Shown: positions 10,753 to 61,035 of the stretch, piece after piece
Position numbering within the stretch: position 1 is the first letter of the stretch
Layout: every line of letters starts with the position of its first letter
Assembly (NCBI GenBank): GCA_037443945.1
Contig: JBBINH010000001.1
Coordinates: forward strand, 5,965 to 69,964
DNA from: Caldilineales bacterium
Lineage (GTDB): Bacteria; Chloroflexota; Anaerolineae; J102
DNA length: 64,000 bases
Reading direction: 5' to 3'
Program-made: the position numbers and the translations under genes
The notes under the pieces: generated by a model
Seen by the model: only the letters and a program-made list of their open reading frames with translations
Told to the model about the DNA's origin: nothing
Databases searched by the model: none

Positions 10753-10756
10753 GCCG

Positions 10757-14506: not shown

Positions 14507-15636
14507 CCGATCGGGCTTCGTTTCGCATGCGTTGGTATCATCTGTTTTGGATACTGTGGCCGGTGGTCCTGTTGGGGTCGGCGGCCATGGCCCATGCGCA
14601 GGCCGATCCCAATGCTGCCTGTCTGGTCTGTCATAGCGTGCCCGGCCGTGAAGCCCTGCTCGCCAGTGGTGAACATCTGCCGCTCTACGTGAACGGCGAT
14701 GTCTACCGCCTGTCGGTGCACGGGCAAATGCAATTGCCCTGTACGGCCTGTCATACCCGCATTACGGGCTTTCCCCACGATCCGTTGCTCGCTTTCGACC
14801 GCCGCGATTATCAGCTCGACCATTACGGGGTCTGCCGGAATTGTCATCCCGAGGTCTACGAAGCCACCCTGGATTCGATGCACGCGCGGGCCCTGGCTGC
14901 CGGCCGTCGCGAAGCGGCGATTTGTACCGATTGCCACGGTGCTCATGACATCACCTCGCCCCACAGCCCGCGTCAGAAGATTTCGCTGACCTGCAGTAAG
15001 TGCCATGCCTTTATCTTCGAGCAATACAAGGAGAGCGTTCACGGCGCCGCCTTGCTCGAGGAAAGCAACCCGGATGTCCCTACCTGTGTCGATTGCCACG
15101 GCGTTCATAACATCGAGGACCCGACTACGGCGGCTTTTCGGTTGCGCTCGCCCGAAATCTGCGGGGAATGTCACCGCAACGAGGCCCTGATGAGCCAATA
15201 CGGCATCTCGACGGCGGTGTTCAATACCTATGTTGCCGATTTCCATGGGACTACCGTCACGCTGTTCCAACGTCAACACCCCGATCAGCCGACGAACAAG
15301 GCGGTTTGCTTCGATTGCCACGGCATCCATAACATCAAAGCCGTAGATGATCCGGAAGCCACGGTGGTCAAGGAGAATCTGCTGGAGACTTGTCGTAAAT
15401 GCCATCCCGATGCCGATATTAACTTTCCGGCCTCGTGGACCAGCCATTATATCCCCGACCGCAACCGCTACCCTTTGGTGTACTATGTCAATCTGTTCTA
15501 CCGGATCATCATTCCCGGTACCATCGGCTTTATGCTCGGCTTTGTTGTGTTGGATGCTTTTCGGCGTGTGTTGATGCGGACGCGTCGACAACGGGTCGTC
15601 AAACAGGCTTCCGTAGAGGCCGATCATCATGAGTGA
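14503..15636 (+). CDS. nonaheme cytochrome c with C-terminal TM anchor (CbcL/CbcA-like c domain)
   Basis: Signal peptide, 9 CxxCH, C-terminal hydrophobic helix. GTG 14503 overlaps the upstream stop; ATG 14527 is an alternative start. Confidence 0.88.
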   Translation: MTDRASFRMRWYHLFWILWPVVLLGSAAMAHAQADPNAACLVCHSVPGREALLASGEHLPLYVNGDVYRLSVHGQMQLPCTACHTRITGFPHDPLLAFDRRDYQLDHYGVCRNCHPEVYEATLDSMHARALAAGRREAAICTDCHGAHDITSPHSPRQKISLTCSKCHAFIFEQYKESVHGAALLEESNPDVPTCVDCHGVHNIEDPTTAAFRLRSPEICGECHRNEALMSQYGISTAVFNTYVADFHGTTVTLFQRQHPDQPTNKAVCFDCHGIHNIKAVDDPEATVVKENLLETCRKCHPDADINFPASWTSHYIPDRNRYPLVYYVNLFYRIIIPGTIGFMLGFVVLDAFRRVLMRTRRQRVVKQASVEADHHE

Positions 15637-16972
15637 GCAACCCCGACAGGAGTATGTCCGCTTTAGCCGGACCGACCGCATCGAGCATTTTCTGTTGATG
15701 ACATCGTTCACGGTGCTGGTGATCACCGGGCTGCCGCAGAGGTATGTCTCGGCGTCGTGGGCCGAGTTTTTGATCGAGCTGATGGGCGGCATCGAGACGG
15801 TGCGCATCATCCATCGCGTGGCGGCCATCGTGCTCATCCTCGAGAGCATCTTTCATATCATCACCGTTTCCTATAAGCTGTTCGTGCGGCGGGTCTCGCC
15901 GTCCATGTTGCCCACCTTGCAGGACTTCGTGGATTTTCTCGATGCCCTGCGCTATAACCTGGGCCTGGCCAGACGACGACCCCAGTACGACCGTTACAAT
16001 TTCGAGGAAAAAATCGAGTATTGGGCCGTCATCTGGGGCACGGCGGTGATGATCATCACCGGCTTTATGCTGTGGAACCCGATCACCACGACGAAATTTC
16101 TACCGGGTAGCTGGATCCCGGCGGCCAAGGCGGCCCATGGCGGTGAGGCTTTGCTGGCCTTCTTGGCCATTATCGTCTGGCACGTCTATAACGTCCATAT
16201 CAAGACCTTCAACCGGAGCATGTTCACCGGCAAACTCAGCCGGGAGGAGATGCTGCACGAACATCCGAAGGAGTTGGAACGCATCGAATCGGGCAGGGTA
16301 CGGCCCGAGCCGCCGCGCGAGATCATCCGTCGGCGTGAGCGGATTTTCCTTCCTATAGCCGGTCTGTTTGCCGTTTTGGCGTTGGTCGTGATGTACTTTT
16401 TTGTCACCTACGAAGAAACGGCCATTGCCACGGTACCGACCCCGGCCGAGCGAGCTGCCGTCTTTGTTCCGGCTACGCCGGTGCCAACCACCGAAGCGGA
16501 CGTGCGGCTGGCGCTTTCGCGGAGGCAGGCGCAGCCCATCCCTCATGCCATCAGCGCCGGCCGTGAGAACTGTCTGGCCTGTCATGGGCTGGGGACGCTT
16601 TCGCCTTATACGCCTATCCATGCCAATTTGCGGTTGGGCAACGAGACCTGTCTGGGATGTCATCAGCCGATGCCGGGGGCAACCGCATTACCCGACAACA
16701 TCGCCGTGCCGGGCTTCTCGACCGAGATTTTGCCCATCTTGCGGCGTCGTTGTGTGGTTTGCCATAACCCCGCCACGCCGTTGGATCTGACCAGCTATCG
16801 GAGCATCATGCGGGGAGATGGCAAAGGCCCGCTTGTGATTCCCGGCGCCGCCGGGCAGAGTCGGTTGTTGACTCTGGGCGGGCTTCCGGTGGAGGTGCAT
16901 CCCAGTCGGTTTACTCCCGAGGAAATGGCCCGCATCGGTGCCTGGATCGATGCCGGCGCTCCGGAGAACTAA
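15629..16972 (+). CDS. cytochrome b (FdnI/HyaC-type, CbcL/CbcB-like) fused to three c-type heme motifs
   Basis: RFSRTDRIEH, IIHRVAA, YNFEEKIEYWA, AHGGEALLA, WHVY b-heme domain; C-terminal CLACH, CLGCH, CVVCH. Confidence 0.88.
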   Translation: MSEQPRQEYVRFSRTDRIEHFLLMTSFTVLVITGLPQRYVSASWAEFLIELMGGIETVRIIHRVAAIVLILESIFHIITVSYKLFVRRVSPSMLPTLQDFVDFLDALRYNLGLARRRPQYDRYNFEEKIEYWAVIWGTAVMIITGFMLWNPITTTKFLPGSWIPAAKAAHGGEALLAFLAIIVWHVYNVHIKTFNRSMFTGKLSREEMLHEHPKELERIESGRVRPEPPREIIRRRERIFLPIAGLFAVLALVVMYFFVTYEETAIATVPTPAERAAVFVPATPVPTTEADVRLALSRRQAQPIPHAISAGRENCLACHGLGTLSPYTPIHANLRLGNETCLGCHQPMPGATALPDNIAVPGFSTEILPILRRRCVVCHNPATPLDLTSYRSIMRGDGKGPLVIPGAAGQSRLLTLGGLPVEVHPSRFTPEEMARIGAWIDAGAPEN

Positions 16973-16984
16973 TGAGGAGTCACG

Positions 16985-18577
16985 ATGATTCGCCGTTTTC
17001 GCCTCTGGTTTCGCCAACACTGGCAAAAGGCCCTGGGAATCGCTTTTGCCCTCACCGTCCTCGGTTTGGTTGTTTTTGTCATCGGGGTGACAGCTTGGGA
17101 GTACACGAACAGCCCTGAGTTTTGCGGTGCCACCTGTCACACCATGCCCCCGGAGTACATCGCCTATCAGCAATCGCCCCACGCCCGTGTGGCCTGTGTG
17201 GACTGTCATCTGGGGCAGGAGTCGGTGCTCTATGCTATCCCGCGTAAGGCCAGGGAGGTACGTCACGTCGTTTTTGCGCTCACCCAGGATTACGAAATCC
17301 CGATCTATGTCAAAAGCATGCGGCCGGCTCGCGACACGTGCGAGAAATGTCACGACCCGGAGAAATCCTCGCTGGACAGCGTGCGTACCATTACCCGCTA
17401 CGCTACCGATGCGACCAACACCCCGACCGTCATTCATCTGATCCTCAAAACCGGTGGCGGATCGAAACGCGAAGGCCTGGGGCGCGGCATCCACTGGCAT
17501 ACGGTCAATCAGGTTTACTTCCTGACCACCGATCCGCTCAAACAGAACATCCCCTATGTCAAAGAAGTTCGGGATGACGGTTCGGTGGTTGAGTATTTCG
17601 ATCTGGAAAGCGGCATTACACCGGCCGAGGTGGCAGCCCGCAGCAGCGAATTGCACTTGATGGATTGTATCGATTGTCACAATCGGGTTTCCCATCGCTT
17701 CGCCAAGCCCGATATCGCCGTGGACGAGGCCATCACCCGTCGTCTCATCGATGGCTCCCTTCCGCAAATCAAGCAGAAGGCGGTAGAGTTGCTCTCACAA
17801 CCGTCCGGGACGCGTGCCGAGTCGTTGGCCCAGATCGAGGCCCTGGCGGCCTGGTATGAGCAAAACTACCCCGAGGTATATGCGACCCGCCGCGAGGCCA
17901 TCGACCAAGCCATCGCCAGCCTGAAACGCATTTTCGAGTCCATTTACTTCCCCGATATGGCCGTAGGCTGGAGCACGCACCCTGACAACCTGGGCCATCT
18001 CAACTTCCCCGGCTGTTTCCGCTGCCATGACGGCAAACATACCAGTCCCGATGGGCAGACGATTCGGCTGGAGTGCAACATTTGCCATACCATTCCGCGT
18101 GTGACCGGGCCGGGCTTACCGTCCCCTGTGATCAACCTGGTGCCGGCCAACGAACCCGAATCGCACAAAGACAGCAACTGGCTGGCGCGGCATCGCTATG
18201 AGTTCGATGCCACCTGCGCCGGTTGCCATAGCACCTTTAATCGCGGCGGCAGCGATAACAGTTCCTTCTGCGCCAACAGTGCCTGTCACGGCATCCGCTG
18301 GCAATTTGCCGGGTTGGATGCACCGGGTCTGCGGGCCATTTTGCCCCCGCCTGCAACCTCAGAAGACGAAACGGCACCGACGGAGGAAGAGCAACCCGGT
18401 TTTGTACCCCTGATTCCGCATCCCCTTGGTGAGGAACGCATCGGCCAGTGCCGTACCTGCCACGGCCTGCGCGGCCTGAGGCCTTATCCCGAGTATCATG
18501 AGGAGTTTCCCCTTCAGGCCTGCACCGAATGCCACAAGCTGGCACCGATGCTACGAGGACAAACCTCGTTGCGATGA
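16985..18577 (+). CDS. NapC/NirT-family multiheme quinol dehydrogenase (ImcH-like), 10 heme motifs
   Basis: N-terminal TM, YTNSPEFCGATCH, CVDCH, CEKCH, LKTGGG..GIHWH; 8 CxxCH plus CxxxCH and CxxxxCH. Confidence 0.88.
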   Translation: MIRRFRLWFRQHWQKALGIAFALTVLGLVVFVIGVTAWEYTNSPEFCGATCHTMPPEYIAYQQSPHARVACVDCHLGQESVLYAIPRKAREVRHVVFALTQDYEIPIYVKSMRPARDTCEKCHDPEKSSLDSVRTITRYATDATNTPTVIHLILKTGGGSKREGLGRGIHWHTVNQVYFLTTDPLKQNIPYVKEVRDDGSVVEYFDLESGITPAEVAARSSELHLMDCIDCHNRVSHRFAKPDIAVDEAITRRLIDGSLPQIKQKAVELLSQPSGTRAESLAQIEALAAWYEQNYPEVYATRREAIDQAIASLKRIFESIYFPDMAVGWSTHPDNLGHLNFPGCFRCHDGKHTSPDGQTIRLECNICHTIPRVTGPGLPSPVINLVPANEPESHKDSNWLARHRYEFDATCAGCHSTFNRGGSDNSSFCANSACHGIRWQFAGLDAPGLRAILPPPATSEDETAPTEEEQPGFVPLIPHPLGEERIGQCRTCHGLRGLRPYPEYHEEFPLQACTECHKLAPMLRGQTSLR

Positions 18578-18740
18578 AGGCTGCTTTTGCAGTCGGCCGG
18601 AACAGGACAGGCCCATACCGGGCCGGGGCAACAGGGTAAGAGAACATTGGTGCCTTCGGGCCGGGCCGCGGCGAAGCGCGCCTCTGATCCTGCGGTGACT
18701 TTTGCATTTGGAAACCGGCTTGCAGTAAGCCGGCGGGGTA

Positions 18741-18758
18741 TCGTGCTAAACTTCACAA
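18741..18758 (+). promoter_or_regulatory. possible Rex (NADH/NAD+ sensor) operator
   Basis: TCGTGCT-AAAC-TTCACAA versus TTGTGAA-N4-TTCACAA (11/14); overlaps an extended -10-like TGCTAAACT. Confidence 0.35.
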
Positions 18759-18826
18759 ACAGATGGCTTGTATATACGTTGCCAAAGGATACTAAGATGA
18801 GCTCTTGATACCGACCCGGTAAAGCT

Positions 18827-18856
18827 TTGACACATTGTTCGTACACCATGTATAAT
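18827..18856 (+). promoter_or_regulatory. consensus sigma70 promoter of the Rieske/cytochrome b operon
   Basis: TTGACA (18827-18832), 18-bp spacer, TATAAT (18851-18856). Confidence 0.8.
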
Positions 18857-19020
18857 TCGCTCCTGAGTCTCGGTCGATTATGGCCGAGCACGCTCGAGAT
18901 AGATTGCAATCGATGGTCCGGTCTGTAGCGGACGTGAGACAAAAAGGCTAAAGCTTTTGCCTGTCTCACGCCCTTTTGTTTTATTCTACTTTCATCCTCT
19001 GTGGTCAAGGCGTGTAACTT

Positions 19021-19857
19021 ATGGCTGATACCGAGACGAAACCCCCTGTGACAACCGGAAAAGAAGCGTTCGTGGCATCCGCCGAGGGCCGCGTGGCCGA
19101 GCGTCGGCGCGGCGGCGATACCACCGGAGTCTCCGCCGATCGTTCGGATGGTGAAGAAGGCGGCATCAGCGAAGCAGCAAAACGTTTCCAGGCCCTGAAG
19201 CAAGGTCAGGCTTTGAAGCAAAGCCGCAAAGAGCGCGAGGCTGCCCTGTTGCGCCGGGCCGTTGATATCGCTCCACGCGTGAGTGCCGAGAGTTTACCCG
19301 AAGCCCAACCGCAAAAGGCGCCTTCGCTACCTATCAACCGCCGCGAATTCCTGACCTATGCCTGGGGCGGTGCCCTGGCCCTGGTTTTAGCGCAGGGCGG
19401 ACTGGCCACCCTGTGGTTTGCCTATCCGCGCTTTAAGGCGGGTGAATTCGGCGGTGTCTTTACCCTCACGAGTATCCCGGAGCGGGGCGCTAAACCTGTC
19501 GAGAATTTGCAGGGTAAGTTCTGGTGGACGAATGCCGAAGAAGGCGGGATAATAGCGCTGTATAAGGTCTGCACCCATCTGGGTTGTCTGTACGAGTGGA
19601 AAGACCAGACCCGTCGTTTTGAATGTCCTTGTCATGGTTCCAAGTTTAATCAATCCGGTCGCGTCATTCATGGACCGGCGGCTCGTGACTTGGATCAATT
19701 TGTCGTTACCGTCCTGGATAGCAACGGTAACCAGGTCGATCAAACCACACCCGATCACCGTTATGTTCTTGCCGGTGAAGGACTGACTTACAAGATCGAC
19801 ACCGGTCGTAAGATTCAGGGTCGGCCTGCTGACCCTGCTCTGGCTGTGGAGGCATGA
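19021..19857 (+). CDS. petC: Rieske [2Fe-2S] subunit of a Rieske/cytochrome b complex
   Basis: Tat-like NRREFL plus TM, CTHLGC and CPCHGS boxes, GPAARDL. Confidence 0.93.
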   Translation: MADTETKPPVTTGKEAFVASAEGRVAERRRGGDTTGVSADRSDGEEGGISEAAKRFQALKQGQALKQSRKEREAALLRRAVDIAPRVSAESLPEAQPQKAPSLPINRREFLTYAWGGALALVLAQGGLATLWFAYPRFKAGEFGGVFTLTSIPERGAKPVENLQGKFWWTNAEEGGIIALYKVCTHLGCLYEWKDQTRRFECPCHGSKFNQSGRVIHGPAARDLDQFVVTVLDSNGNQVDQTTPDHRYVLAGEGLTYKIDTGRKIQGRPADPALAVEA

Positions 19858-19860
19858 GTT

Positions 19861-21471
19861 ATGGTTGGTCAAGATATTCGCAGCCGTGGACTACGCGGTT
19901 ATCTCGGCGCCAAGGCCGACAGCGTCTTCGAACGCATCACGGCCGGCATTCCCTGGCGCGATTTCCGGAAGATGCTGCGCGGGGATCCCCCCGATCGTCC
20001 GAATCCACGCCTGAAACCCCATTCCGAGTCGTTTTGGCTGCATATCAAGCCCACCTACTATCACGAATCGGTCACGCACTTCACCCATACCTTTCGGTTG
20101 GGATTGCTGAGCACCTATCTGTTCGTGGTGGAGCTGATTACCGGTCTCATTTTGATGATCTGGTACGCGCCCACGCCTGAGCGGGCTTATGCGGATATGA
20201 TACGTTTGCTATCCAATGTGCCGTTTGGGCAATTGATGCGCGATATTCATCGTCTGGGCGCAGAGGCCATGGTGATCGTCGTGGTTCTGCATATGTTTCG
20301 GACCTTCTTAACCGGTTCGTACAAAAAACCGCGACAGTTCACCTGGGTGACCGGGGTGGTGCTGCTCATCGCCACGCTTTTCCTGAGCTTTTCCGGCTAT
20401 CTTCTGCCCTGGGACCAGCTGGCCTTCTGGGCCGTGACCATCGGTACGAGCATGGCCGAGGCCTCGCCGACACCGCCGGGCGCCGGCTGGATCGGCACCA
20501 TGCTGTTCGGTACTTCCGACTGGGTGGGTCAATTCGTCAACCTGTTGTTGCGTGGGGCACCCGACATCGGTGCCGGCGGGTTGCTGCGCTTCTATCTGCT
20601 CCATATCTTCTTCTTGCCGCTGGTTGTTATCTTCTTCTTCTTCTTCCACTACTACAAGGTGGTCCATTTCGGCATTTCCTTGCCGGCGAAGGAGGAAGAA
20701 GTCGGTCAGGATACGGCCAACCGGGTGCCGGCCGATAAACGGCGCTATTACCTGATGGACATCGCCATTGACGAGATAGCCCTGCTTTCGGTGGTCACTT
20801 TCGTTCTGGTAGCGATGTCTGCCTTTTTCTATGATGCCAAGTTGGAACACATTGCCAATCCCCTGAAGACACCACTGCATACGACGGCACCCTGGTATTT
20901 CTACTGGCTCCAGGGTTTGCTCAAGATCGGCAACAAAGTGTTTTGGGGCTTGATTGTGCCCGGGATCATGATTTTCCTCACCTTTGCGCTACCGTATCTC
21001 GATTACAATCCCAGTCGTCGCGGGAAGGACCGTCGTTATGCTCTGGTAGCCGGCTTTCTCTTCGCCTCTTGGATCGTGGTCCTCTCCTTCATGGGCCTGC
21101 CCCTCTATGCCGTGCAATCCCCGCCGGCCGAAGAGGTGGTTCAAGAGTTCATGCCCGAAGAAGGGGTCGGCCCCATCCGTGAGATCCCCTGGTCTGAGCT
21201 GGAAATCGGCGTGTATGACACACGGACCTTTGAAGGGAGTGTGCCCTACTCCGAGTTCGAGCAGGTTATCCTGGACTTCAAGGAGCGCATTGCCCGAGAC
21301 CCCGGTTTGCCCAACGGCAGCGGTATTATCACCGTTGAAGCGGCCGGTCCGGGTTTGAAACGAATCAAGTTCCAGATCGATTACACCGATATCGACGGGA
21401 AGCCGGCTCAGTTTATCAAGACCTTCTATCTGCACGAGAGTTCGCTCTATTGGGAGCAATTCACCTTCTGA
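19861..21471 (+). CDS. petB: cytochrome b subunit (b6 plus subunit IV fused) of a Rieske/cytochrome b complex
   Basis: Heme-b histidines in RDIHR, VLHMFR, LLHIFF, FFHYY; [14 protein letters not shown]; Qo motif APWY. Confidence 0.93.
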
Positions 21472-21486
21472 GGAGGCTCACTCCCG

Positions 21487-22617
21487 ATGTACGGTGTATC
21501 CCGTCTTGTCATTGCGACCATGGCGCTCGTGGGCACTTTTGTCGTCGTGCTGCTGACGGCGGCACAGGAACCGGCTCGCATGGAGCGCTATGCGGCCAAT
21601 TTCCACGGCCGCGAGATGGAAGTGGGTGCCCAGATTTATTTCGAGGCCTGTGCCGTCTGTCATGGTCAACACGGCGAAGGGCTGGTCGGTCCGGCCCTCA
21701 ACTCGGCCGATTTGCTGCTACCCGCGCCCGGACAAACGCGTCCTCCACGCTTGCTGGCTAAGAATTACCTGGGGGACTTGCGCAGCTATCTCGAAGGCAC
21801 TATCACCTACGGTCGGCCCGGCACGGCCATGCCTGCCTGGGGACAGGCGGCGGGCGGACCCTTCCGCCCCGATCAGATTGCCGCTGTAGCGACCTTTATC
21901 ATGAATTGGGGACTCGACCCCGGCAAACAGTGGGGCGGCGCATCCGAGCGCGTGGCCATCGGCGGCGTTGAACCGGTACTCGTGACGCCCGCCGTGTCGA
22001 TGGCAACCCCACCCCCTCGCAATGTCCGCAGTGTGGAGCTGGGTAAGTATCTCTTCAACGGCCCGGCCGGCTGTGCCGAATGCCATACCTTCGACATCGC
22101 CACCGGCAAAACCGGCCCCGACCTGACGAACATCGTCCAAACCAAGGGCCGCGATTATGTGCGCACCTCCATCGTCGACCCCAACGGCATGGTGGCACCT
22201 GACCATGCTCCGAGTGTGATGCCGCAAACCTTTGCCTTTGCTCTGACCGACATCGAGCTGGAGTCCATCATCGATTACCTGGAGAATCCGGCGGCCGCAG
22301 CCCAGGAAGCGACTCCGGCACCGGCAGCACCGCTGGACGGCAAGCAGGTAGCCCAAAGCGCCGGTTGTCTTGCCTGCCATTCGGTGGATGGCTCCGCCCT
22401 GGTCGGACCGACCTGGCAAGGTCTTTTCGGTCACGAGGTCGAGTTGGAAGATGGCAGTAAAGTGATCGCCGACGAGGCGTATTTGCGCGAATCCATCCTC
22501 AATCCTGCAGCCAAGATCGTCAAGGGTTACCAGAATCTGATGCCCGCCAACTACGAGCAACTGCTAACCCCGGAGCAGATCACGGCCATTATCGAGTACA
22601 TCAAGCTTCTGCAATAG
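21487..22617 (+). CDS. membrane-anchored triheme class I cytochrome c
   Basis: N-terminal TM; CAVCH, CAECH and CLACH each in a class I domain; last domain GPTWQGL...YLRESI..P. Confidence 0.9.
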   Translation: MYGVSRLVIATMALVGTFVVVLLTAAQEPARMERYAANFHGREMEVGAQIYFEACAVCHGQHGEGLVGPALNSADLLLPAPGQTRPPRLLAKNYLGDLRSYLEGTITYGRPGTAMPAWGQAAGGPFRPDQIAAVATFIMNWGLDPGKQWGGASERVAIGGVEPVLVTPAVSMATPPPRNVRSVELGKYLFNGPAGCAECHTFDIATGKTGPDLTNIVQTKGRDYVRTSIVDPNGMVAPDHAPSVMPQTFAFALTDIELESIIDYLENPAAAAQEATPAPAAPLDGKQVAQSAGCLACHSVDGSALVGPTWQGLFGHEVELEDGSKVIADEAYLRESILNPAAKIVKGYQNLMPANYEQLLTPEQITAIIEYIKLLQ

Positions 22618-53725: not shown

Positions 53726-54135
53726 CCGGTAAGCGGTTTTTGCGATAGGTGCGCTCCGGCGTTGTGGGTCCTGCTGCGCGTGACGCCGTTGGTCCTTTCG
53801 GCCGATCGCGCGACTCCAGGTGCGGCCGGCGGCCCCCAGGGCCGCCGGCCGCACCCGCGCGACGCGTGGCGATCCCTCCCAGGGTCGGCGCCGGACCCCG
53901 CCTGCGCCCCCCACGCATGCCGCCGATCGGCGAGGAAAGCGCCTCACCGCGCCGGTTTCCCTCGCCCAGGCTCCGATCTACCCCCCATCCACCACCGGCA
54001 CCGAGGGACCATCGCCCTCCCATGGCACGTCATGCCGGGCGGTCCTTTCCGTCAGCGCGCCCACAGGCCGGTTATCGCTCCGGATGCCGGAGTCGCCGGG
54101 GCATATGGTCTGGACCATGACAATGCGCAACGATT

Positions 54136-54237
54136 GACTCGGTCCTCTCTTTTGTTGGTGAGAACGTTTGAACGTTAGAACGTTTGAACGTTATGCCTGC
54201 CTGCCCCTCTTGCGCCAACACACTCCGGAACCGAGTC
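54136..54237 (+). mobile_element. MITE-like element, copy A (102 bp)
   Basis: Ends GACTCGGTCC / GGAACCGAGTC, flanked by direct repeat CAACGATT (54128-54135, 54238-54245); one more 8-bp internal repeat unit than copy B. Confidence 0.85.
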
Positions 54238-54244
54238 CAACGAT

Positions 54245-54273
54245 TTGACAATGGCCGGCGCTTCTGTTACATT
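54245..54273 (+). promoter_or_regulatory. sigma70 promoter of the cobalamin operon
   Basis: TTGACA (54245-50)-N17-TACATT (54268-73) with a TGn extension. Confidence 0.75.
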
Positions 54274-54298
54274 TCCGACGCTCAACCGATATCTCCCG

Positions 54299-54420
54299 TT
54301 GGCGACTTACATCGCTCCGACGATGGCCGGGGAAGTCCGGTGCGGCCCATCAAGCCAAGGCCGGCGCTGTCCCGCAACTGTAAGGGCTTCGGCCCAAGCC
54401 ACGATACCCGGTGTCGCCAA
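54299..54420 (+). promoter_or_regulatory. cobalamin (B12) riboswitch aptamer
   Basis: GGGAAGTCCGGTG, CCGGCGCTGTCCCGCAACTGTAA, AAGCCACGATACC; closing helix TTGGCGAC/GTCGCCAA. Confidence 0.92.
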
Positions 54421-54472
54421 CGCCACCACCTGCGCGGACAGGCTCGGTGGTTGCAAGGCCTGCAGTCCATGC

Positions 54473-54502
54473 AACCCTCGCCGCCGACGGTGAGGGTTTT
54501 TT
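54473..54502 (+). terminator. riboswitch expression-platform terminator
   Basis: AACCCTCGCCG-CCGA-CGGTGAGGGTT plus T tract; GGTTGC (54449-54) can sequester the 5' arm as an antiterminator. Confidence 0.8.
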
Positions 54503-54549
54503 GTGCCTTCCCCGCCGCATCCTGTCTCGCACGTTCTCCGGAGGCTCCG

Positions 54550-55611
54550 ATGCGGCGATTTGTTTTTCGCTTTCTCCTGTTCCTTTGGCTCCTCAGTTTC
54601 GGTGCAGCGGTCCGTGCCGATGCCGACAGCAGTCTGCCGGTGCGGCGGAACGCCGTCGAGGCGGCCGTTGCCTGGCTACGAACCCTACAGCGACCCGATG
54701 GCAGCGTGGGATCGTTGGGCACCTCGTGCGATGTGGCCTGGCTGGTGGCCCTGGCCGGCCAGAATCCCGATGGACCGGAATGGACGCCGGGCAGCCGTAG
54801 CCTGATGGCGGCCTGTGCCGACGAAGCGCCGACCTTTCTCGCCCGCCGGGATGTCGGTCGCCTGGCCAAGGTCCTGCGCGCCGTGGTGGCGGCGCGGGCG
54901 GTGGGCGCCAACCGCTTTGACCCCCGCGCCTTTGCCGGTATCGACCTGACCGCCGAATTGGAGGCCCGCTACAACCCGGCCACCGGTCTCTACGATGCCA
55001 ACTTCTTCTTCCGCCACTGTCTGGCCGTCCTGGCCCTGGTCGAGGCCGGTCGCCCTCTCCCTCCGGGTGTTGTGAACGGCATCCTGGCCCAACAACGCCC
55101 CGACGGAAGCTGGGGTTGGGCTGTGGACCCCGATCCGAGCGATGGATTCGCCACGCCGGGCGATATTGACACCACCGGTCGCAGCCTGCAAGCCCTGCGC
55201 CGCGCCGGCTTGCCCCTCTACCACCCGGCCTATACCCGGGCGTTGACCTATATCCAAAACCGACAGCATGAGGATGGCGGCTGGGGCCTTATGGACGGTC
55301 CTACGAACACCAACTCGACCGCCGTGGCCGTCGACACCATCATCGCGGCCGGCTGGGACCCGGAGGGGCCGCGCTTCCTTCGCCACGGCAGGACCCCGGT
55401 TGCGGTGCTCCTGAGCATGCAAGAGGCGAGTGGCGCCTTCATCTATCGGCCCGGTGCCGAAGAAAGTCGCCTGTTGGCCACTTATGATGCCATCCCGGCC
55501 CTACTTCAGCCTTATCCCGGCGATGATGAGCTGCCCTTGCGGCTCTATACGCCTCTCATGCGTCTCTCCCATTCCCCCTCTTCCGTGTTCTCCGCAGGAG
55601 GTATCCCATGA
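54550..55611 (+). CDS. secreted prenyltransferase/squalene-cyclase-repeat alpha-barrel protein (transcobalamin alpha-domain-like)
   Basis: Signal peptide MRRFVFRFLL..AVRA; QW-type repeats LQRPDGS, QQRPDGSWG, RQHEDGGWG, MQEASGAF. Confidence 0.8.
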   Translation: MRRFVFRFLLFLWLLSFGAAVRADADSSLPVRRNAVEAAVAWLRTLQRPDGSVGSLGTSCDVAWLVALAGQNPDGPEWTPGSRSLMAACADEAPTFLARRDVGRLAKVLRAVVAARAVGANRFDPRAFAGIDLTAELEARYNPATGLYDANFFFRHCLAVLALVEAGRPLPPGVVNGILAQQRPDGSWGWAVDPDPSDGFATPGDIDTTGRSLQALRRAGLPLYHPAYTRALTYIQNRQHEDGGWGLMDGPTNTNSTAVAVDTIIAAGWDPEGPRFLRHGRTPVAVLLSMQEASGAFIYRPGAEESRLLATYDAIPALLQPYPGDDELPLRLYTPLMRLSHSPSSVFSAGGIP

Positions 55612-56108
55612 TCCGACGTCGTTTCCTTGCTCTGCTGCTCTCGTTTGTACTTCTGGCGCTGATCGCGGCCGCAGCATGGGCCCAGGAGACCACCAAGCGC
55701 GTGGCCTTGGTGATCCAGCTCCCCGACTACGTCTACTCCGAAATCGTCACCGTACCGGTTGAGGCTACCACGGCCGACGTGCTGGAGGCAGCCCTCATCC
55801 CGGTGGGCATGGCCGAGTTTAGCTGGGGTAAGGCCGTTTGCAACCTCGGCGGCGTTGGTAATCCGGTGGACAATTGTTTCGCCGATCCCAACAATTTCTG
55901 GGCCTACTACCATCTTGTGGATAAGGCCTGGGTGGCTTCCAATGTCGGTGTCAGCAACTTTATCCCTGCCGATCAGGCCGTTGAGGGCTTTGCCTGGTCG
56001 GGTTTTGACGCCGATTTCAATCCCACGGTCCGGCCACCGGTGATGACGTTTGCCCAGGTCGAGAGGGAACAATTTGTACCCATTTTCCTCCCCTACGTCC
56101 GGCGCTGA
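55608..56108 (+). CDS. secreted DUF4430 / transcobalamin beta-domain-like protein
   Basis: Signal peptide; SWGKAVCNLGG..FWAYY..SNVGVSNFIP.D..VEGFAW pattern. Confidence 0.72.
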   Translation: MIRRRFLALLLSFVLLALIAAAAWAQETTKRVALVIQLPDYVYSEIVTVPVEATTADVLEAALIPVGMAEFSWGKAVCNLGGVGNPVDNCFADPNNFWAYYHLVDKAWVASNVGVSNFIPADQAVEGFAWSGFDADFNPTVRPPVMTFAQVEREQFVPIFLPYVRR

Positions 56109-56157
56109 GGCAGCCGAACCCAAGAAGCCACCACGGCCATCGGCGGCAACCCCGGCC

Positions 56158-57483
56158 ATGGGACGACGGCTGGCTCTGCTTCTGATCGGTCTGGTGTTGG
56201 TGGCGGCTCTTGGCCGCTCACCGGGACGCGCCCAAGGCCCAAATCGAGCCGGCCTGGTCGTCCGTTTCGGCAACGGGAATGCCCTGGCCCAGTGTGTCGC
56301 TTTCGACGAGCAGCGCATCACCGGGTGGGATTTGTTGCAGCGTTCGGGACTGTCCGTCATCGGCGAACCGGGAATGATGGGCGTGGCCGTCTGCAAAATC
56401 GGCGATCCCTACAACCAGGATGGCTGTGATTTCCCCCGCGAAGACTGTTTCTGTCAGTGCCTGACGCCCGGAAGCGGTCCTTGCCGTTACTGGGCCTATT
56501 ACCAACTGGTCGACGGGCGCTGGCAATATTCCAATGTGGGCGCGGCGGGCCGCATCATCACCCACGGCGCCGTGGACGGCTGGGCCTGGGGCCTGGGCGA
56601 AGTCAACGGTTCGACCGTTGAACCGCCTTTGCTGAGCTTCGAGCAGATTTGCCCGGTCGAACAGCCGCCCACGGCCACGCCTTCGCCGACGCCGACCGCA
56701 TCGCCGACCCCCACCATGACGGCCACGCCCACCCCAGGCACGGCGACGCCGACTCCCACGAGCACGGCCACACCGACGCGGACGGCAACGCCCACGCTCA
56801 CCCCAACCGGCACGGCCACGCCCACATCGATTGTTTCCCCCACGACGGCTCCCACCGTCCCCACGGCAACGCTTGTTCCTACGACCACACCCACGCCCAC
56901 CCCTGCCGCCATCCGCATGACCCTCTCGCTGCGCCCCGAACGCATCGTGGCCGGCGAATGTGCCACGCTGAGCTGGCAGGTCGTGGGCGCCGACGCCGTC
57001 TTTTTGCAGATAGGCGAGGCTGCCGAACAACCCGTGTCGCCTTCCTCGGCACTGAGTGTCTGTCCGGTGGTCGAGACTCTCTATAGCCTGCGCGCCGTGG
57101 CCGCCGAGCAGCAGGATCGTCGCACGGCCATCCTGGAGGTGGTGGAACCGGAACCCACGCCCGCTTCTACCCCGACACCCCCAACGGCTCCTTCGACGGA
57201 AGAGACTCCCATCCCAACGCCGACGTCGGCGGTGACGGCGACGCCGACAATGTCGGTTGTGGCCGTTTTGACGACGCCCACGGCGCCGGTCATAACCACT
57301 TCGGCGACACCGACGGCCGGTATCATCGCCCGGCCGGGGCCCCTCTTCACGCCGGCGGTTCCGGCGGCGAGCACCGGCAATCCGGCGCGGTTGTTCGTCA
57401 GCCTCGGCCTTTTTGCCCTTGTCCTGGCCGGTCTGTTGGCCGCAGGGGCATGGGCTCTGCGACGCCAGCGTCAACTCCGATAA
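56158..57483 (+). CDS. membrane-anchored DUF4430-like protein with PT-rich stalk and Ig-like domain
   Basis: Signal peptide; paralogous beta domain (GVAVCKIG..YWAYYQLVDGRWQYSNVG..AVDGWAW); TPT repeats; C-terminal TM plus RRQRQLR. Confidence 0.75.
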   Translation: MGRRLALLLIGLVLVAALGRSPGRAQGPNRAGLVVRFGNGNALAQCVAFDEQRITGWDLLQRSGLSVIGEPGMMGVAVCKIGDPYNQDGCDFPREDCFCQCLTPGSGPCRYWAYYQLVDGRWQYSNVGAAGRIITHGAVDGWAWGLGEVNGSTVEPPLLSFEQICPVEQPPTATPSPTPTASPTPTMTATPTPGTATPTPTSTATPTRTATPTLTPTGTATPTSIVSPTTAPTVPTATLVPTTTPTPTPAAIRMTLSLRPERIVAGECATLSWQVVGADAVFLQIGEAAEQPVSPSSALSVCPVVETLYSLRAVAAEQQDRRTAILEVVEPEPTPASTPTPPTAPSTEETPIPTPTSAVTATPTMSVVAVLTTPTAPVITTSATPTAGIIARPGPLFTPAVPAASTGNPARLFVSLGLFALVLAGLLAAGAWALRRQRQLR

Positions 57484-57503
57484 GGGGCCGATTGGCAGCG
57501 ACC

Positions 57504-58595
57504 ATGACGGCGGGTTATCATCCTCTGAGCTGGGTGGCCTGGCTGATGGCAGGGTTGACGGCAGCCCTGCTGACGCGCAATCCCTTTTATCTGCTCATCG
57601 TTTGCGCCGCCGCTGCCTTTGTTTTTGGCGTGCTGCTCCAACATCACGCCGGTCACACCGAACCCACCGCCGCCGCGGCCCGTCCGCAGGCCTGGCGGCC
57701 GGTGGTCCGGTTGGCGCTGTTTCTGGGGTTGTTTACGGTGCTGTTCAATTTCCTCACCTCGCATTACGGCCGTGTGGTCCTGGTCCGCTTGCCCGTCGCT
57801 TGGCCTTTGCTCGGTGGCCCCCTCACCCTGGAGGCCCTTTTGTACGGTCTGAGCACGGCTCTGAGTTTTCTGGCCTTGCTCTTGGTCTTCACCGTGTTCA
57901 ACGGCGCCGTAGGCCCTCATGATGTCTTGCGGCTGTTGCCGACGTTTGCCTATCAGGCCGGAGTGGCGCTCACGATTGCCGTTTCCTTCGTGCCCCAGAC
58001 GGTGGTCGCCTGGCAAGAGCTGCAGGAGGCCCACCGCTTGCGTGGGTACCATCGGCGCCGTCTGCGCGATTGGCAACCGCTTTTCGTGGCGCTGTTGGCG
58101 AACGGGTTGGATCGGGCCGTGCAACTGGCCGAGTCCATGGAGGCGCGCGGTTTCGGCGCCGCCACAGCAGCCCTGACGCCGAGACAGACGCGGTTGTGGC
58201 GGACCGGGGCCATCATCGGCCTGGTGGCTTTGCTGATGGGCCTGCTGGTGCGCGCGTTTTGGCCGGCTGCCGAGAGGCCGGGTCTGTTGGTCATGGCCGT
58301 GGGTGCATTGCTGGTTGTGGGGGTCCTCATGCGCCAGGGCCGCGCCATCCGCCGATCCCGCTATCGCCGTTGGCTGTGGCGGCGGCGAGATACGGCCGTG
58401 ACCGTCACGGCGCTGGTCGTGATGGCCGGCATGCTCGCCATGACGCGGGTTGGGGAGGACCTGCTTTTTTACTATCCGTACCCACCTTATGACTGGATGC
58501 CACCGTTTCATCCCGTGCCGGGTTTGTTGGCGGCTTTGTTGCTCATGCCGGCCCTGCTCATGCCGCCCGCTTCGCCGGTTCTCGGTGAGGGGTAA
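57504..58595 (+). CDS. ECF transporter T component
   Basis: HPLSW, TRNP, LDRAVQLAESMEARGF conserved ARG motif. Confidence 0.9.
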   Translation: MTAGYHPLSWVAWLMAGLTAALLTRNPFYLLIVCAAAAFVFGVLLQHHAGHTEPTAAAARPQAWRPVVRLALFLGLFTVLFNFLTSHYGRVVLVRLPVAWPLLGGPLTLEALLYGLSTALSFLALLLVFTVFNGAVGPHDVLRLLPTFAYQAGVALTIAVSFVPQTVVAWQELQEAHRLRGYHRRRLRDWQPLFVALLANGLDRAVQLAESMEARGFGAATAALTPRQTRLWRTGAIIGLVALLMGLLVRAFWPAAERPGLLVMAVGALLVVGVLMRQGRAIRRSRYRRWLWRRRDTAVTVTALVVMAGMLAMTRVGEDLLFYYPYPPYDWMPPFHPVPGLLAALLLMPALLMPPASPVLGEG

Positions 58596-58600
58596 AGCCC

Positions 58601-60247
58601 ATGATCGCCCTTGACCGTTTCAGCTTTCGCTATGCCGGGGCAGCCGAACCCACCTTGCATGGGGTTTCCCTGCGGTTGCCGCAGGGGGCGTTTGTGCTGG
58701 TCATCGGACCGTCGGGGTCGGGCAAATCCACGTTTCTGCGCACGCTCAACGGCCTGGTCCCCCATTTCTACGGAGGGCATCTCAGCGGTTGCGTGCGCGT
58801 GGACGGTCGCGACCCGGTGCAGGCGGCGCCGAAAGGAATGGCGGACCTGGTGGGGATGGTCTTTCAGGATCCCGAATCCGGTTTTGTCGTCGACCGGGTT
58901 GAGGACGAGCTGGCCTTCGCGCTGGAGAATTGGGCACTGCCCCAGGATGTGATGCGCAAACGGGTGGAAGAAGTGCTGGATCAGTTGCGCATCGCCCATC
59001 TGCGCCATCGGCCGGTCAGCACGCTTTCCGGCGGCGAGAAACAGCGGGTGGCCATTGCGGCGGTGCTGACGCTCCATCCTCAGGTGCTTTTGCTGGATGA
59101 GCCGACTTCTCAGCTCGATCCGCAGGCCGCCGAGGAGGTGTTGCTGGCCTTACGCCAACTCAATGAGGACCTGGGGCTGACCGTGGTCCTTTCCGAGCAT
59201 CGCCTGGAGCGGGTGGTGCAGTATGCCGATTTGGTTTTGTATTGGCCGGGTCATGGTCAACCGCCCCTGCTCGGTACACCGACCGAGGTGCTGCGCCGGG
59301 TGCCGCTGACGCCTCCGCTGATCACGCTGGGCAAGACCCTGGGCTGGGAACCCCTGCCCCTGACCATCAAAGAGGGACGTCGCTTCGCTCAGGCCCTAAA
59401 AGAGCATCTGCATTTGCCGACGGTACCGCCGGAAACGCCGCCGCCAGCCAACGGCCGTGAGGCCGTGGTGGTCGTCGAGAAGCTGTGGTATCGCTATACA
59501 AGCGGGGGCCGCGGGCCCGGCATCGAGGCCCTGACCGGGGTCAGTTTGCGGGTGCATCAGGGCGAGTTTGTGGCGCTCATGGGACGCAACGGCAGCGGCA
59601 AGACCACCCTGCTCAAGCATCTCATCGGTTTGTTGCAGCCCACCCAGGGCCATGTGCGCGTCGTGGGCTATGAGACAGGCCGCGTCTCTACCGAAACCCT
59701 GGCCCGGCGTGTGGCCTATGTCCCCCAAAACCCGGAGCGACTGCTCTTTGCCGAAACCGTGGCCGAGGAGTTGGCCCTCAGCCGTCGTGCCCATGGTCTG
59801 CCGCCCGATCCGGAGGCCGACCGGGCGCTATTGGCACGGTTGGGGCTCGACCATTGCCGGGACAGCCATCCGCACGATTTATCGGTGGGGGAGAAGCAAC
59901 GTCTGGCTCTGGCCGCCGTGCTCGTGCCCGATCCGGAGCTGATCCTGCTCGACGAGCCTACCCGTGGGCTTGATTACGTGCAAAAACACATCCTGGCCGG
60001 GCTGCTGCATGAGCTGCGCCAGACGGGCAAGACGGTGATCATGGCTACCCACGATGTCGAGCTGGCAGCGGCCACGGCCGACCGCGTTGTGCTCATGGCC
60101 GAAGGTCAGATCGTGGTGGACGGCCCGGCGCGACGGGTGATGGCCGAATCGCTTGTCTTTGCCAGTCAGGTCAATAAGCTGTTTCGCGATCCGCGTTTGC
60201 TCACGCCGGAGGACGTGCTGGCCGGGCTGGAGGAGGCCAGGCGATGA
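58601..60247 (+). CDS. ECF transporter ATPase, duplicated ABC domains
   Basis: GPSGSGKST/LSGGEKQR/LDEP and GRNGSGKTT/LSVGEKQR/LDEP. Confidence 0.93.
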   Translation: MIALDRFSFRYAGAAEPTLHGVSLRLPQGAFVLVIGPSGSGKSTFLRTLNGLVPHFYGGHLSGCVRVDGRDPVQAAPKGMADLVGMVFQDPESGFVVDRVEDELAFALENWALPQDVMRKRVEEVLDQLRIAHLRHRPVSTLSGGEKQRVAIAAVLTLHPQVLLLDEPTSQLDPQAAEEVLLALRQLNEDLGLTVVLSEHRLERVVQYADLVLYWPGHGQPPLLGTPTEVLRRVPLTPPLITLGKTLGWEPLPLTIKEGRRFAQALKEHLHLPTVPPETPPPANGREAVVVVEKLWYRYTSGGRGPGIEALTGVSLRVHQGEFVALMGRNGSGKTTLLKHLIGLLQPTQGHVRVVGYETGRVSTETLARRVAYVPQNPERLLFAETVAEELALSRRAHGLPPDPEADRALLARLGLDHCRDSHPHDLSVGEKQRLALAAVLVPDPELILLDEPTRGLDYVQKHILAGLLHELRQTGKTVIMATHDVELAAATADRVVLMAEGQIVVDGPARRVMAESLVFASQVNKLFRDPRLLTPEDVLAGLEEARR

Positions 60248-61035
60248 AGCCGCGCGTTTCGGCATCGGCGCTTATTCTGGTGTTGGCCAGTCTGGTAGGG
60301 ATGGCGGCGTTTCTTGCGCCCTTTTTCAGCCCCAACGTGCGCCAGAGCGAGACCATGGTCATGGCCCACAGCCAGGATGCTCCTTTCGTCTTGATGGTGT
60401 TGACACTGCTGGCCCTGGCCGCTTTGTTTGCCCATCTGCGGCAGGGCCAGATGTCGGCCAAGACGCTGGCGCTGCTGGGGGCTTTGGCAGCCGTGGGCGC
60501 CGTGTTGCGCTTCGTGCCCGGTCCGGCCGGATTTTCGGCCGTCTTCTTCCTGCCGATTCTGGCCGGCTATGCTTTCGGCGCCCAGTTCGGCTTTCTTCTC
60601 GGCGTGTTGACTTTGCTGGTCTCGGCCTTTATGACCGGTGGGGTCGGCCCCTGGTTGCCTTATCAGATGTTTGCTTCGGGTTGGGTAGCGGCCATCGCCG
60701 GGCTGTTGCCGCATCCCCGACCTCATGCACGAGCCGAGATCCTCCTGCTGGCAGCGGCGGGCTTTGTGCTGGGGCTGTTCTACGGCGCCGTGATGAATCT
60801 GTGGTTCTGGCCTTTTGTCACGCAACCGGCCCAGGCGCATCTCTATTGGCAGCCGGGTCAGGGTATGGCCGCCGTCTTGCGGAGCTATGCCTTGTTTTAC
60901 ATGGCCACGTCGTTCTTTTGGGACCTGTGGCGCAGTGTGGGCAATGCCGCGCTTATCGGGCTTTTCGGTGCTCCGGTTTTGCGTGTGCTGCGCCGCTACG
61001 AGCAACGGTTCCATTTTGTTATAGAGCCGGCTTGA
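60244..61035 (+). CDS. cbrT: ECF S component, CbrT-like (cobalamin)
   Basis: FGAQFGFLLG, GGVGPWLPYQMFASGW, FFWDLWRSVGN; B12 riboswitch context. Confidence 0.8.
   Translation: MKPRVSASALILVLASLVGMAAFLAPFFSPNVRQSETMVMAHSQDAPFVLMVLTLLALAALFAHLRQGQMSAKTLALLGALAAVGAVLRFVPGPAGFSAVFFLPILAGYAFGAQFGFLLGVLTLLVSAFMTGGVGPWLPYQMFASGWVAAIAGLLPHPRPHARAEILLLAAAGFVLGLFYGAVMNLWFWPFVTQPAQAHLYWQPGQGMAAVLRSYALFYMATSFFWDLWRSVGNAALIGLFGAPVLRVLRRYEQRFHFVIEPA

Follow-up and report, generated by a model that had tools for sequence, protein, structure and literature searches.

We analysed a 64-kb stretch of DNA from a Caldilineales bacterium (contig JBBINH010000001.1, positions 5,965 to 69,964; the whole stretch is called the window hereafter) and found that it carries a six-gene operon, placed behind a cobalamin riboswitch, that combines an energy-coupling factor (ECF) importer with three exported proteins, here named alpha, beta and C. 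With a probability of about 0.6, this operon is a B12-repressed corrinoid-scavenging system of a Chloroflexota (Caldilineales/Anaerolineae-like) bacterium. The following points are established and are described first: the riboswitch and its terminator, the ECF parts, the two folds of the exported proteins, the paralogy of beta and C, the signals for export, the synteny kept across related loci and the fusions of these domains in relatives. The way in which the proteins may work together and the alternatives come afterwards.

Riboswitch and ECF importer genes

The features of the operon are as follows, with coordinates in the window.

54245-54273, + strand: sigma-70-like promoter candidate (TTGACA, 17-nt spacer, TACATT, TG extension; 10/12 in a consensus scan)
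54289-54429, + strand: cobalamin riboswitch aptamer (RF00174; 48.5 bits against a gathering score of 31.5, E 4.6e-9)
54473-54505, + strand: expression platform, an intrinsic terminator hairpin with U-tract (11-bp stem, 7 GC pairs, 4-nt loop)
54550-55611, + strand: alpha, secreted alpha/alpha-toroid, SCO2321-like, 353 aa (signal peptide, GGAGG ribosome-binding site)
55608-56108, + strand: beta, secreted beta-grasp protein of the transcobalamin-like clade of soluble-ligand-binding beta-grasp (SLBB) domains, SCO2322/PF28005 type, 166 aa (signal peptide, ATGA overlap with alpha)
56158-57483, + strand: C, stalked and C-terminally membrane-anchored paralogue of beta, 441 aa (BLASTP match to beta, SCO2322_fam)
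57504-58595, + strand: EcfT (T), CbiQ family, 363 aa, in a reading frame open from 57450 (PF02361, 30.9 bits, cut-off 25)
58601-60247, + strand: fused EcfA-EcfA' ATPase (AA), 548 aa (TIGR04520 and TIGR04521)
60244-61035, + strand: ECF S component (S), 263 aa (PF12822, 42 bits, cut-off 30.7)

The match to RF00174 is full-length, covers model positions 1-189 and is the sole Rfam match within the window. The promoter candidate, a consensus match only, ends 16 nt 5' of the aptamer. Downstream, the terminator hairpin (54473-54498, 11 pairs) is followed by TTTTTGTG; it dominates the fold of the leader and is present in both the minimum free energy (MFE) and the centroid structure of 54420-54552, with an MFE z of -2.9. 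Aptamer and terminator have the usual layout of a transcriptional off switch, for which cobalamin binding and termination are predicted. An earlier note on this DNA had already placed a riboswitch and a terminator ahead of the genes, and the RF00174 match begins 10 nt before the 54299 given there. On a near-identical contig (L001), the public gene call includes a 207-aa open reading frame (7321-7944; about 53870-54493 in the window) that spans riboswitch and terminator and has no Pfam match. This call is probably an error in non-coding DNA that is rich in GC, and its frame is open in the window only from 54245.

The six genes 3' of the riboswitch all lie on the + strand in the order alpha-beta-C-T-AA-S and are separated by short gaps or joined by 4-nt ATGA overlaps; one of these overlaps links S to the AA gene. 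The start of EcfT at 57504 was taken from the gene call on L001, and the protein has eight hydrophobic segments in total. In the fused ATPase, the EcfA half (residues 2-233) scored 366 bits with TIGR04520 (ECF_ATPase_1; cut-off 315), and the EcfA' half (residues 292-517) scored 338.8 bits with TIGR04521 (ECF_ATPase_2; cut-off 330). T, the two ATPase domains and S thus all exceed the curated cut-offs and are contiguous on one strand, which is the organisation of a dedicated (group I) ECF importer. The T, A-A and S genes named in the earlier note were therefore recovered by PF02361, TIGR04520, TIGR04521 and PF12822. Its label of a group I ECF-CbrT did not survive. Among the Pfam and NCBIfam families, S matched only PF12822 and neither CbiM, CbiN nor any other family; a phmmer search against all PDB chains (E ≤ 10) returned chance matches only, and its homologues carry the sole name 'ECF transporter S component'. 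As S has no similarity to any solved chain, the name ECF-CbrT is unjustified, and the assignment of S as CbrT was rejected at the sequence level, given a generic PF12822 match and no PDB match despite the published crystal structure of ECF-CbrT. S is not demonstrably CbrT, and the characterised ECF-CbrT belongs to group II (PMC5997447).

EcfT also has a C-terminal extension of about 100-120 aa beyond the CbiQ model (window 58220-58595, residues about 240-363). The model covers residues 29-237 of the 381-aa reading that starts at 57450, corresponding to about 11-219 of the 363-aa protein. Three or four additional hydrophobic segments lie in the extension, and most of its length is covered by tblastn matches in related loci.

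The three exported proteins

The AlphaFold2 model of beta, which was built on 39 homologues, is confident, with a predicted local distance difference test score (pLDDT) of 90.5. When this model was compared with the PDB using Foldseek, ranks 1-16 were all beta domains of transcobalamin, haptocorrin or intrinsic factor. The best match was 5no0, an isolated human beta domain (E 6.4e-6, template modelling (TM) score 0.75 on the target, root-mean-square deviation 3.2 Å, 114 columns), and the top 16 also include 5np4, the isolated human transcobalamin beta domain with bound cyanocobalamin. Rank 17 was 3u7z, a bacterial protein of the same fold from Ruminococcus gnavus, and generic ubiquitin-like beta-grasp domains ranked below it. 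Identity in the structural alignments of beta with transcobalamin, haptocorrin and intrinsic factor was 14-18%. DSSP assigned to the model strands 29-37 and 42-50, a helix at 55-61, a hairpin of strands 66-71 and 74-80, and strands 97-104, 107-110 and 124-131. The hairpin follows directly after the helix, and this is the trait that defines the transcobalamin-like SLBB clade (PMC1796856). Invariant residues of beta are W98-A-Y100, V125-E-G-F-A-W-S131 and C78/C90.

At the sequence level, beta matched the NCBIfam family SCO2322_fam (NF040672) with E 1.7e-6 and 28.4 bits, below the cut-off of 85. PF28005 is recorded on homologues of beta and was only 'faint' or 'weak' on the near-identical contig L001. 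Despite these sub-cut-off scores, the relation of beta to the SCO2322 family, judged by sequence comparison, is real. A profile of the beta domain alone, searched against 1.84 billion cluster representatives (50% identity), retrieved 2560 at E ≤ 1e-3 and 1303 at E ≤ 1e-10. Furthermore, homologous beta proteins bear PEP-CTERM, LPQTG or transmembrane anchors and are therefore surface proteins.

Protein C is a paralogue of beta, with 35% identity over 108 aa (BLASTP, E 3e-16), and it also matched SCO2322_fam (E 5e-8, 33.4 bits, again below the cut-off of 85). Its N-terminal half comprises a signal peptide, a beta domain (28-166), a Pro/Thr linker (167-250) and a middle domain of about 85 aa (251-335); its C-terminal half comprises a second Pro/Thr linker (336-405), a transmembrane helix (412-430) and the basic tail RRQRQLR. 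The fractions of Pro, Thr, Ser and Ala in the two linkers are 0.85 and 0.73. A sequence search of C against the PDB gave low-complexity chance matches only and no assignment for the middle domain. The small secreted beta-domain protein and its stalked, membrane-anchored paralogue were both described in the earlier note, and the signal peptides, the 35% identity, the linkers and the transmembrane helix agree with that description. Its suggestion that the two beta-type proteins differ in cobamide selectivity is pure conjecture.

Alpha begins with a hydrophobic segment (residues 3-21) followed by AVRADA. It matched the Pfam families SQHop_cyclase_C/N above cut-off and the NCBIfam family SCO2321_fam (NF053823) with E 7e-21 (score 74.6, cut-off 300). 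The AlphaFold2 model (pLDDT 89.5) is an all-helical toroid, and its nearest structures in Foldseek were small single-domain squalene-hopene-type cyclases (8pak, E 1e-8), MstE, drimenyl-diphosphate synthases and prenyltransferase beta subunits. A profile of the alpha family matched squalene-hopene cyclase with E 3e-28. The signal peptide, the toroid model and the SQHop_cyclase matches bear out the secreted alpha-barrel with prenyltransferase-type repeats that had been noted before. Of the claim that this barrel is like that of transcobalamin, the toroid fold stands and a closer kinship does not: no transcobalamin chain was among the top 50 Foldseek matches of alpha, the alpha-family profile found no transcobalamin, intrinsic factor or haptocorrin chain in the PDB at E ≤ 10, and alpha did not match PF01122 at E ≤ 1.

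In the alignment with squalene-hopene cyclase, alpha residues D205-I-D207-T208-T209 (window 55162-55176) correspond to D374-V-D376-D377-T378. D205 is kept in 30 of 31 homologues and D207 in 27 of them, and the third Asp of the DxDD motif is Thr in 24 of 31. Alpha therefore lacks the full DxDD general-acid motif of class II terpene cyclases. This DxDTT motif is conserved although alpha is secreted and encoded in a transport operon.

Most alpha homologues end in [FY]LP followed by 3-4 hydrophobic residues and 1-3 more (FYLPAILSP, LYLPLVLRQG), and alpha of the window ends in a degenerate, extended form of this motif, LYTPLMRLSHSPSSVFSAGGIP (55560-55608). The beta of the window's clade ends in a similar way (FVPIFLPYVRR; 56070-56105), where other beta homologues have a PEP-CTERM, LPQTG or plain transmembrane tail. 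From these sequences, the C-terminal motif shared by alpha and beta could be an unrecognised sorting or docking signal.

Related loci and domain fusions

One genome per species was scanned, which gave 33 loci with a relative of beta, all of them in Chloroflexota metagenome-assembled genomes (MAGs; Caldilineales, Anaerolineae and Chloroflexia). About 20 independent loci in Chloroflexota MAGs have the order alpha-beta-C-T-AA-S, with identities of 38-86% (38-79% for alpha), and because the order recurs so often, the arrangement is not due to chance. In addition, RF00174 was found 5' of the cluster in 32 of the 33 related loci, including those that differ in gene content, and the sequence of the remaining one (L028) contains a run of 100 N. 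The number of genes varies in some loci, with three beta-type genes in L016 and two alpha genes in L045. In L018, a single riboswitch is followed by cobO-, cobT-, cobS- and cobU-like genes and then by alpha-beta-C-T-AA-S, and in L044 a riboswitch operon contains a cobQ-like gene and then alpha alone; the cob names were read from the translated reading frames, not from family searches. These neighbours point to corrinoid salvage, possibly of incomplete corrinoids, rather than to cobalt or haem. A separate metagenome scan with a narrow alpha alignment returned 39 loci, of which about 7 were true relatives, and the rest had one QW-type repeat in common.

Relatives in which the domains are fused were also found. 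In P0283, a toroid that is 44% identical to alpha is followed by a beta domain, which is the order seen in transcobalamin. The opposite order, with a beta domain followed by one or more toroids, occurs in P0290, P0291, P0318, P0343, P0397, P0399 and P0419. Fusions in both orders argue that alpha and beta act together. Furthermore, a more distant riboswitch-controlled cluster (L040) encodes a PF14478 protein, CbiQ, a fused ATPase and P0147, in which an S component (34% identical to S of the window) is fused to a toroid (32% identical to alpha). Toroid Pfam families are likewise combined with the source name 'ECF S component' in P0152 and P0154, and P0154 also has PF12822. The toroid-beta fusions and P0147 are the best available evidence for joint action of the toroid, the SLBB domain and the S component.

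A sister clade of about 10 loci has a beta that is 61-70% identical to that of the window, carries a PEP-CTERM tail and has the riboswitch directly 5' of its gene. Two of these MAGs have S orthologues (67-68% identical) that stand alone on another contig (L080 for the MAG of L005, L082 for that of L039), without alpha next to them, and no riboswitch was found 5' of these solitary S genes at the gathering score. In close relatives, alpha and S are jointly present in or absent from the cluster, and beta and C stay with the motor. Strict co-inheritance of alpha and S was rejected, with L046 as the counter-example (alpha, a C-like protein, T and AA; no S). The distant alpha homologue of L046 (4585-6198, 537 aa) has a C-terminal extension after the toroid with repeated segments of the 'FGYPL...YFERARFE' type, which looks like a cell-wall-binding repeat.

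Two further observations concern the surroundings of these clusters and one concerns the window itself. A glycine riboswitch lies on the - strand of L005 (4557-4659), a few kb from a B12-regulated cluster of the sister clade, and the glycine-cleavage genes gcvT, gcvH and gcvP lie near such a cluster in L038 (1-4439); both are unrelated to the cluster. A glycine riboswitch and glycine-cleavage genes are a usual pairing of regulator and target. In the window, a run of multihaem c-type cytochrome genes occupies 9016-22617 on the + strand and encodes proteins of 578 aa (six paired-CXXCH stretches), 1249 aa (MtrC/MtrF-like domains) and 377 aa (multihaem), followed by a cytochrome b561-like membrane protein, a NapC/NirT-like protein, cytochrome b and a dihaem cytochrome c. 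This run looks like an extracellular or periplasmic electron-transfer module.

Proposed corrinoid capture, its alternatives and known systems

In the reading that we prefer, the operon serves the capture and import of a corrinoid, which would be either cobalamin itself or an incomplete precursor, for example cobinamide. With ample cobalamin, the aptamer would bind it and the downstream hairpin would stop transcription; with little cobalamin, all six genes would be expressed. T, the fused A-A' ATPase and S would form a dedicated importer of the group I type, and the reach of this importer would be extended by the three exported proteins, namely the toroid and the small SLBB protein, both free, and another SLBB domain, which C holds away from the membrane on its long Pro/Thr stalk. 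As in transcobalamin, an SLBB domain would grip the corrinoid and the toroid would probably close it off, so that alpha and beta would be partners in a complex. The corrinoid would presumably be handed over from the exported proteins towards the membrane, where it would be passed to S and then imported in an ATP-driven step. ECF importers are usually described as functioning without extracytoplasmic binding proteins.

Several results weigh against such a corrinoid trap. In the literature, we found no report of ligand or corrinoid binding by a bacterial member of the family, and the only genetically tested relative of this type of system, lsa1836-1840 of Lactobacillus sakei, was reported for haem, not for B12 (bioRxiv 10.1101/864751). 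B12 riboswitches also control cobalt (ECF) transporters. When beta and two family profiles (full-length and trimmed domain) were searched against all PDB chains, no transcobalamin, intrinsic factor or haptocorrin was found by sequence, and these searches gave chance matches only (DEPDC5 and a snake phospholipase homologue). Similarly, PF14478 (DUF4430) was not matched by any of the 39 beta homologues at E ≤ 10, and hhalign of beta with the PF14478 protein of L040 gave a probability of 0.3%. The likeness of the beta model to the transcobalamin family is structural only and not one of sequence. As modelled, alpha shares its fold class with the alpha domain of transcobalamin; its sequence kin are the toroids of terpene cyclases and prenyltransferases, and it retains D205-x-D207 in alignment with the acid motif of squalene-hopene cyclase. 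Finally, in the sister clade the operon consists of beta-C-T-AA, with no alpha or S within 10 kb (L036, L038/L039), although only two independent genomes of this alpha-less group could be read through the end of the cluster. Because this clade runs riboswitch-beta-C-T-AA, alpha is not always needed beside beta.

These results also bear on the earlier note, which had proposed a split surface corrinoid trap made of separately encoded alpha and beta subunits. That proposal gains from the toroid-beta fusions in both orders and from the conserved B12 control, and the sister clade without alpha weakens the case for an obligate pairing of alpha and beta in a clamp. The intrinsic-factor sequence pattern claimed for the 166-aa protein was undetectable with phmmer and with the two profiles against the PDB, and none of the 39 homologues had a DUF4430-type match by sequence; the suggested comparison of the fold with transcobalamin and intrinsic factor structures came out in its favour at Foldseek ranks 1-16. 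The interpretation is partly supported and right in outline, in that a B12-regulated ECF importer is encoded together with exported proteins of transcobalamin domain types. We tentatively suggest a modular form of it, in which a toroid cap associated with S, and sometimes fused to it, might close round a corrinoid delivered by free or stalk-tethered SLBB shuttles, so that a two-chain transcobalamin would form transiently at the transporter's mouth. The system would then be a candidate prokaryotic ancestor of the animal B12 carriers, with (beta, C, T, AA) and (alpha, S) as separable modules.

The two modules might also be separable without any two-chain clamp, which we think rather unlikely. 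Beta and C would then bind the corrinoid themselves and travel with T-AA, and the toroid would be a cap or docking platform over S. The operons of L036 and L038/L039, with nothing other than beta-C-T-AA, and the solitary S genes elsewhere without alpha fit this arrangement, as does the position of S after AA in every close alpha locus in which the region 3' of AA is visible (about 19 loci). It is also in keeping with the S-toroid fusion P0147, with P0152 and P0154, which pair toroid families with the S component name, and with 5np4, in which the isolated human transcobalamin beta domain was crystallised with cyanocobalamin. The frequent toroid-beta fusions in both orders speak for a clamp instead. 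Moreover, alpha stands beside a C-like protein and T in L046 and L047, with no S after AA in L046, alpha stands alone after cobQ in L044, and the alpha-less arrangement comes from two independent genomes. Because of this small sample and the counter-example L046, the alpha-S module is kept as a rival to, or refinement of, corrinoid capture by alpha and beta together.

A substrate other than a corrinoid, either another tetrapyrrole such as haem or a metal such as cobalt, seems improbable to us. In its favour, an L. sakei deletion mutant of lsa1836-1840 took up 5- to 8-fold less labelled haem (bioRxiv 10.1101/864751), the closest bacterial structure, 3u7z, was deposited as a 'putative metal binding protein', and the known control of cobalt ECF transporters by B12 riboswitches would accommodate a metal. 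Yet the riboswitch is kept in nearly all of the related loci (32/33), and the cluster occurs beside cobinamide-salvage genes (cobU/T/S/O), which require an imported corrinoid. In addition, S belongs to PF12822 and matched neither CbiM, CbiN nor another family, and the fold of beta is that of proteins that grip an entire cobalamin molecule. Less probable still is that alpha is an enzyme that is secreted and modifies a lipid of the envelope, either class II terpene-cyclase-like or prenyl-binding, and that its place in the operon is incidental. The profile match to squalene-hopene cyclase, the small single-domain cyclases at the top of the Foldseek list and the conservation of D205 and D207 would fit an enzyme. 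The Thr in place of the third Asp in most homologues would not, nor would the cleavable-looking signal peptide in a protein with no membrane-insertion surface identified. The 4-nt ATGA overlap of alpha with beta fits translational coupling, in about 20 loci the alpha gene keeps its place with the ECF genes behind a B12 riboswitch, and toroids are fused to SLBB or S domains in relatives.

Microbes exchange corrinoids with one another, and little is understood of the capture of scarce corrinoids by bacteria that lack an outer membrane. The family studied here is large (2560 cluster representatives) and consistently B12-regulated in Chloroflexota, and in the literature we came across no biochemical work on any of its bacterial members. 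If corrinoid binding and delivery to the ECF importer are true, the exported proteins would be the first substrate-capture proteins for ECF transporters; the system would also allow a test of the proposal made in 2007 that the animal B12 carriers are of bacterial origin, and would help to settle whether the L. sakei system really imports haem.

Such a system has been conceived before. In bacteria, Burroughs, Balaji, Iyer and Aravind (2007; Biol Direct 2:4, PMC1796856) described secreted or anchored SLBB proteins of the transcobalamin-like kind. Toroids were noted as fused to either side of these proteins, and the operons also encoded a further, paralogous SLBB protein and had neighbouring CbiO/CbiQ genes. 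The authors assigned the alpha domain of transcobalamin to the toroid fold class, predicted a role in scavenging B12 or its precursors and proposed that the animal carriers were acquired from bacteria. The window agrees with these systems in its exported, hairpin-bearing beta-grasp protein, the paralogue C, the neighbouring toroid gene, and CbiQ with an ECF ATPase, and it falls within the clade as they defined it. It differs in that beta belongs to the SCO2322/PF28005 sequence family and not to PF14478, with no sequence link detected between the two families, in that its host phylum is Chloroflexota, and in that relatives of its proteins have PEP-CTERM anchors. The riboswitch, which that study does not mention, is documented across loci in the present analysis.

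Verplaetse et al. (2019; bioRxiv 10.1101/864751) described lsa1836-1840 of L. sakei as an ECF system with separately encoded, exported beta-like and alpha-like proteins, proposed capture and hand-over to S, and presented mutant data on haem uptake. By its description, that system resembles the one in the window, as a single transcription unit encodes S, a fused A-A' ATPase, T and separate proteins with the transcobalamin beta fold and the toroid fold. However, it was assigned to haem and its text contains no riboswitch, whereas the operon of the window is riboswitch-linked; it has one beta protein and the window has two; and its gene order, by locus-tag numbering, is S-AA-T-beta-alpha, compared with alpha-beta-C-T-AA-S in the window.

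The animal carriers transcobalamin, intrinsic factor and haptocorrin share with the window the fold of beta (TM score 0.75 with the isolated domain) and an alpha/alpha-toroid partner. They are single chains with alpha followed by beta, whereas the window has two genes and single-chain fusions occur only in relatives. No sequence similarity to the carriers was detectable, PF01122 and PF14478 were not matched, and the toroid of the window is nearer to the terpene cyclases. Among the ECF importers, ECF-CbrT of Lactobacillus delbrueckii imports cobalamin and cobinamide (Santos et al., 2018; eLife 7:e35828, PMC5997447) and has homologous motor parts (T, A, A'). CbrT draws on a group II module that also serves other S components, and no extracellular helpers accompany it (PMC5997447), whereas S of the window is encoded with its own motor.

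The closest named families are those of Streptomyces SCO2321 and SCO2322 (NF053823, NF040672, PF28005); alpha matches SCO2321_fam, and beta and C match SCO2322_fam. Because their scores are far below the curated cut-offs, the window proteins are relatives and not equivalogs of SCO2321 and SCO2322. We found no functional study of either protein in the literature, and both families already exist in NCBI and Pfam by name only. Predicted in 2007 and seen in Lactobacillus in 2019, this type of system gains in the window a well-supported further example and no new principle; what makes the window valuable is a clean, riboswitch-linked case, the support that comparison with related loci gives to a corrinoid role, and the hint of a module formed by alpha and S.

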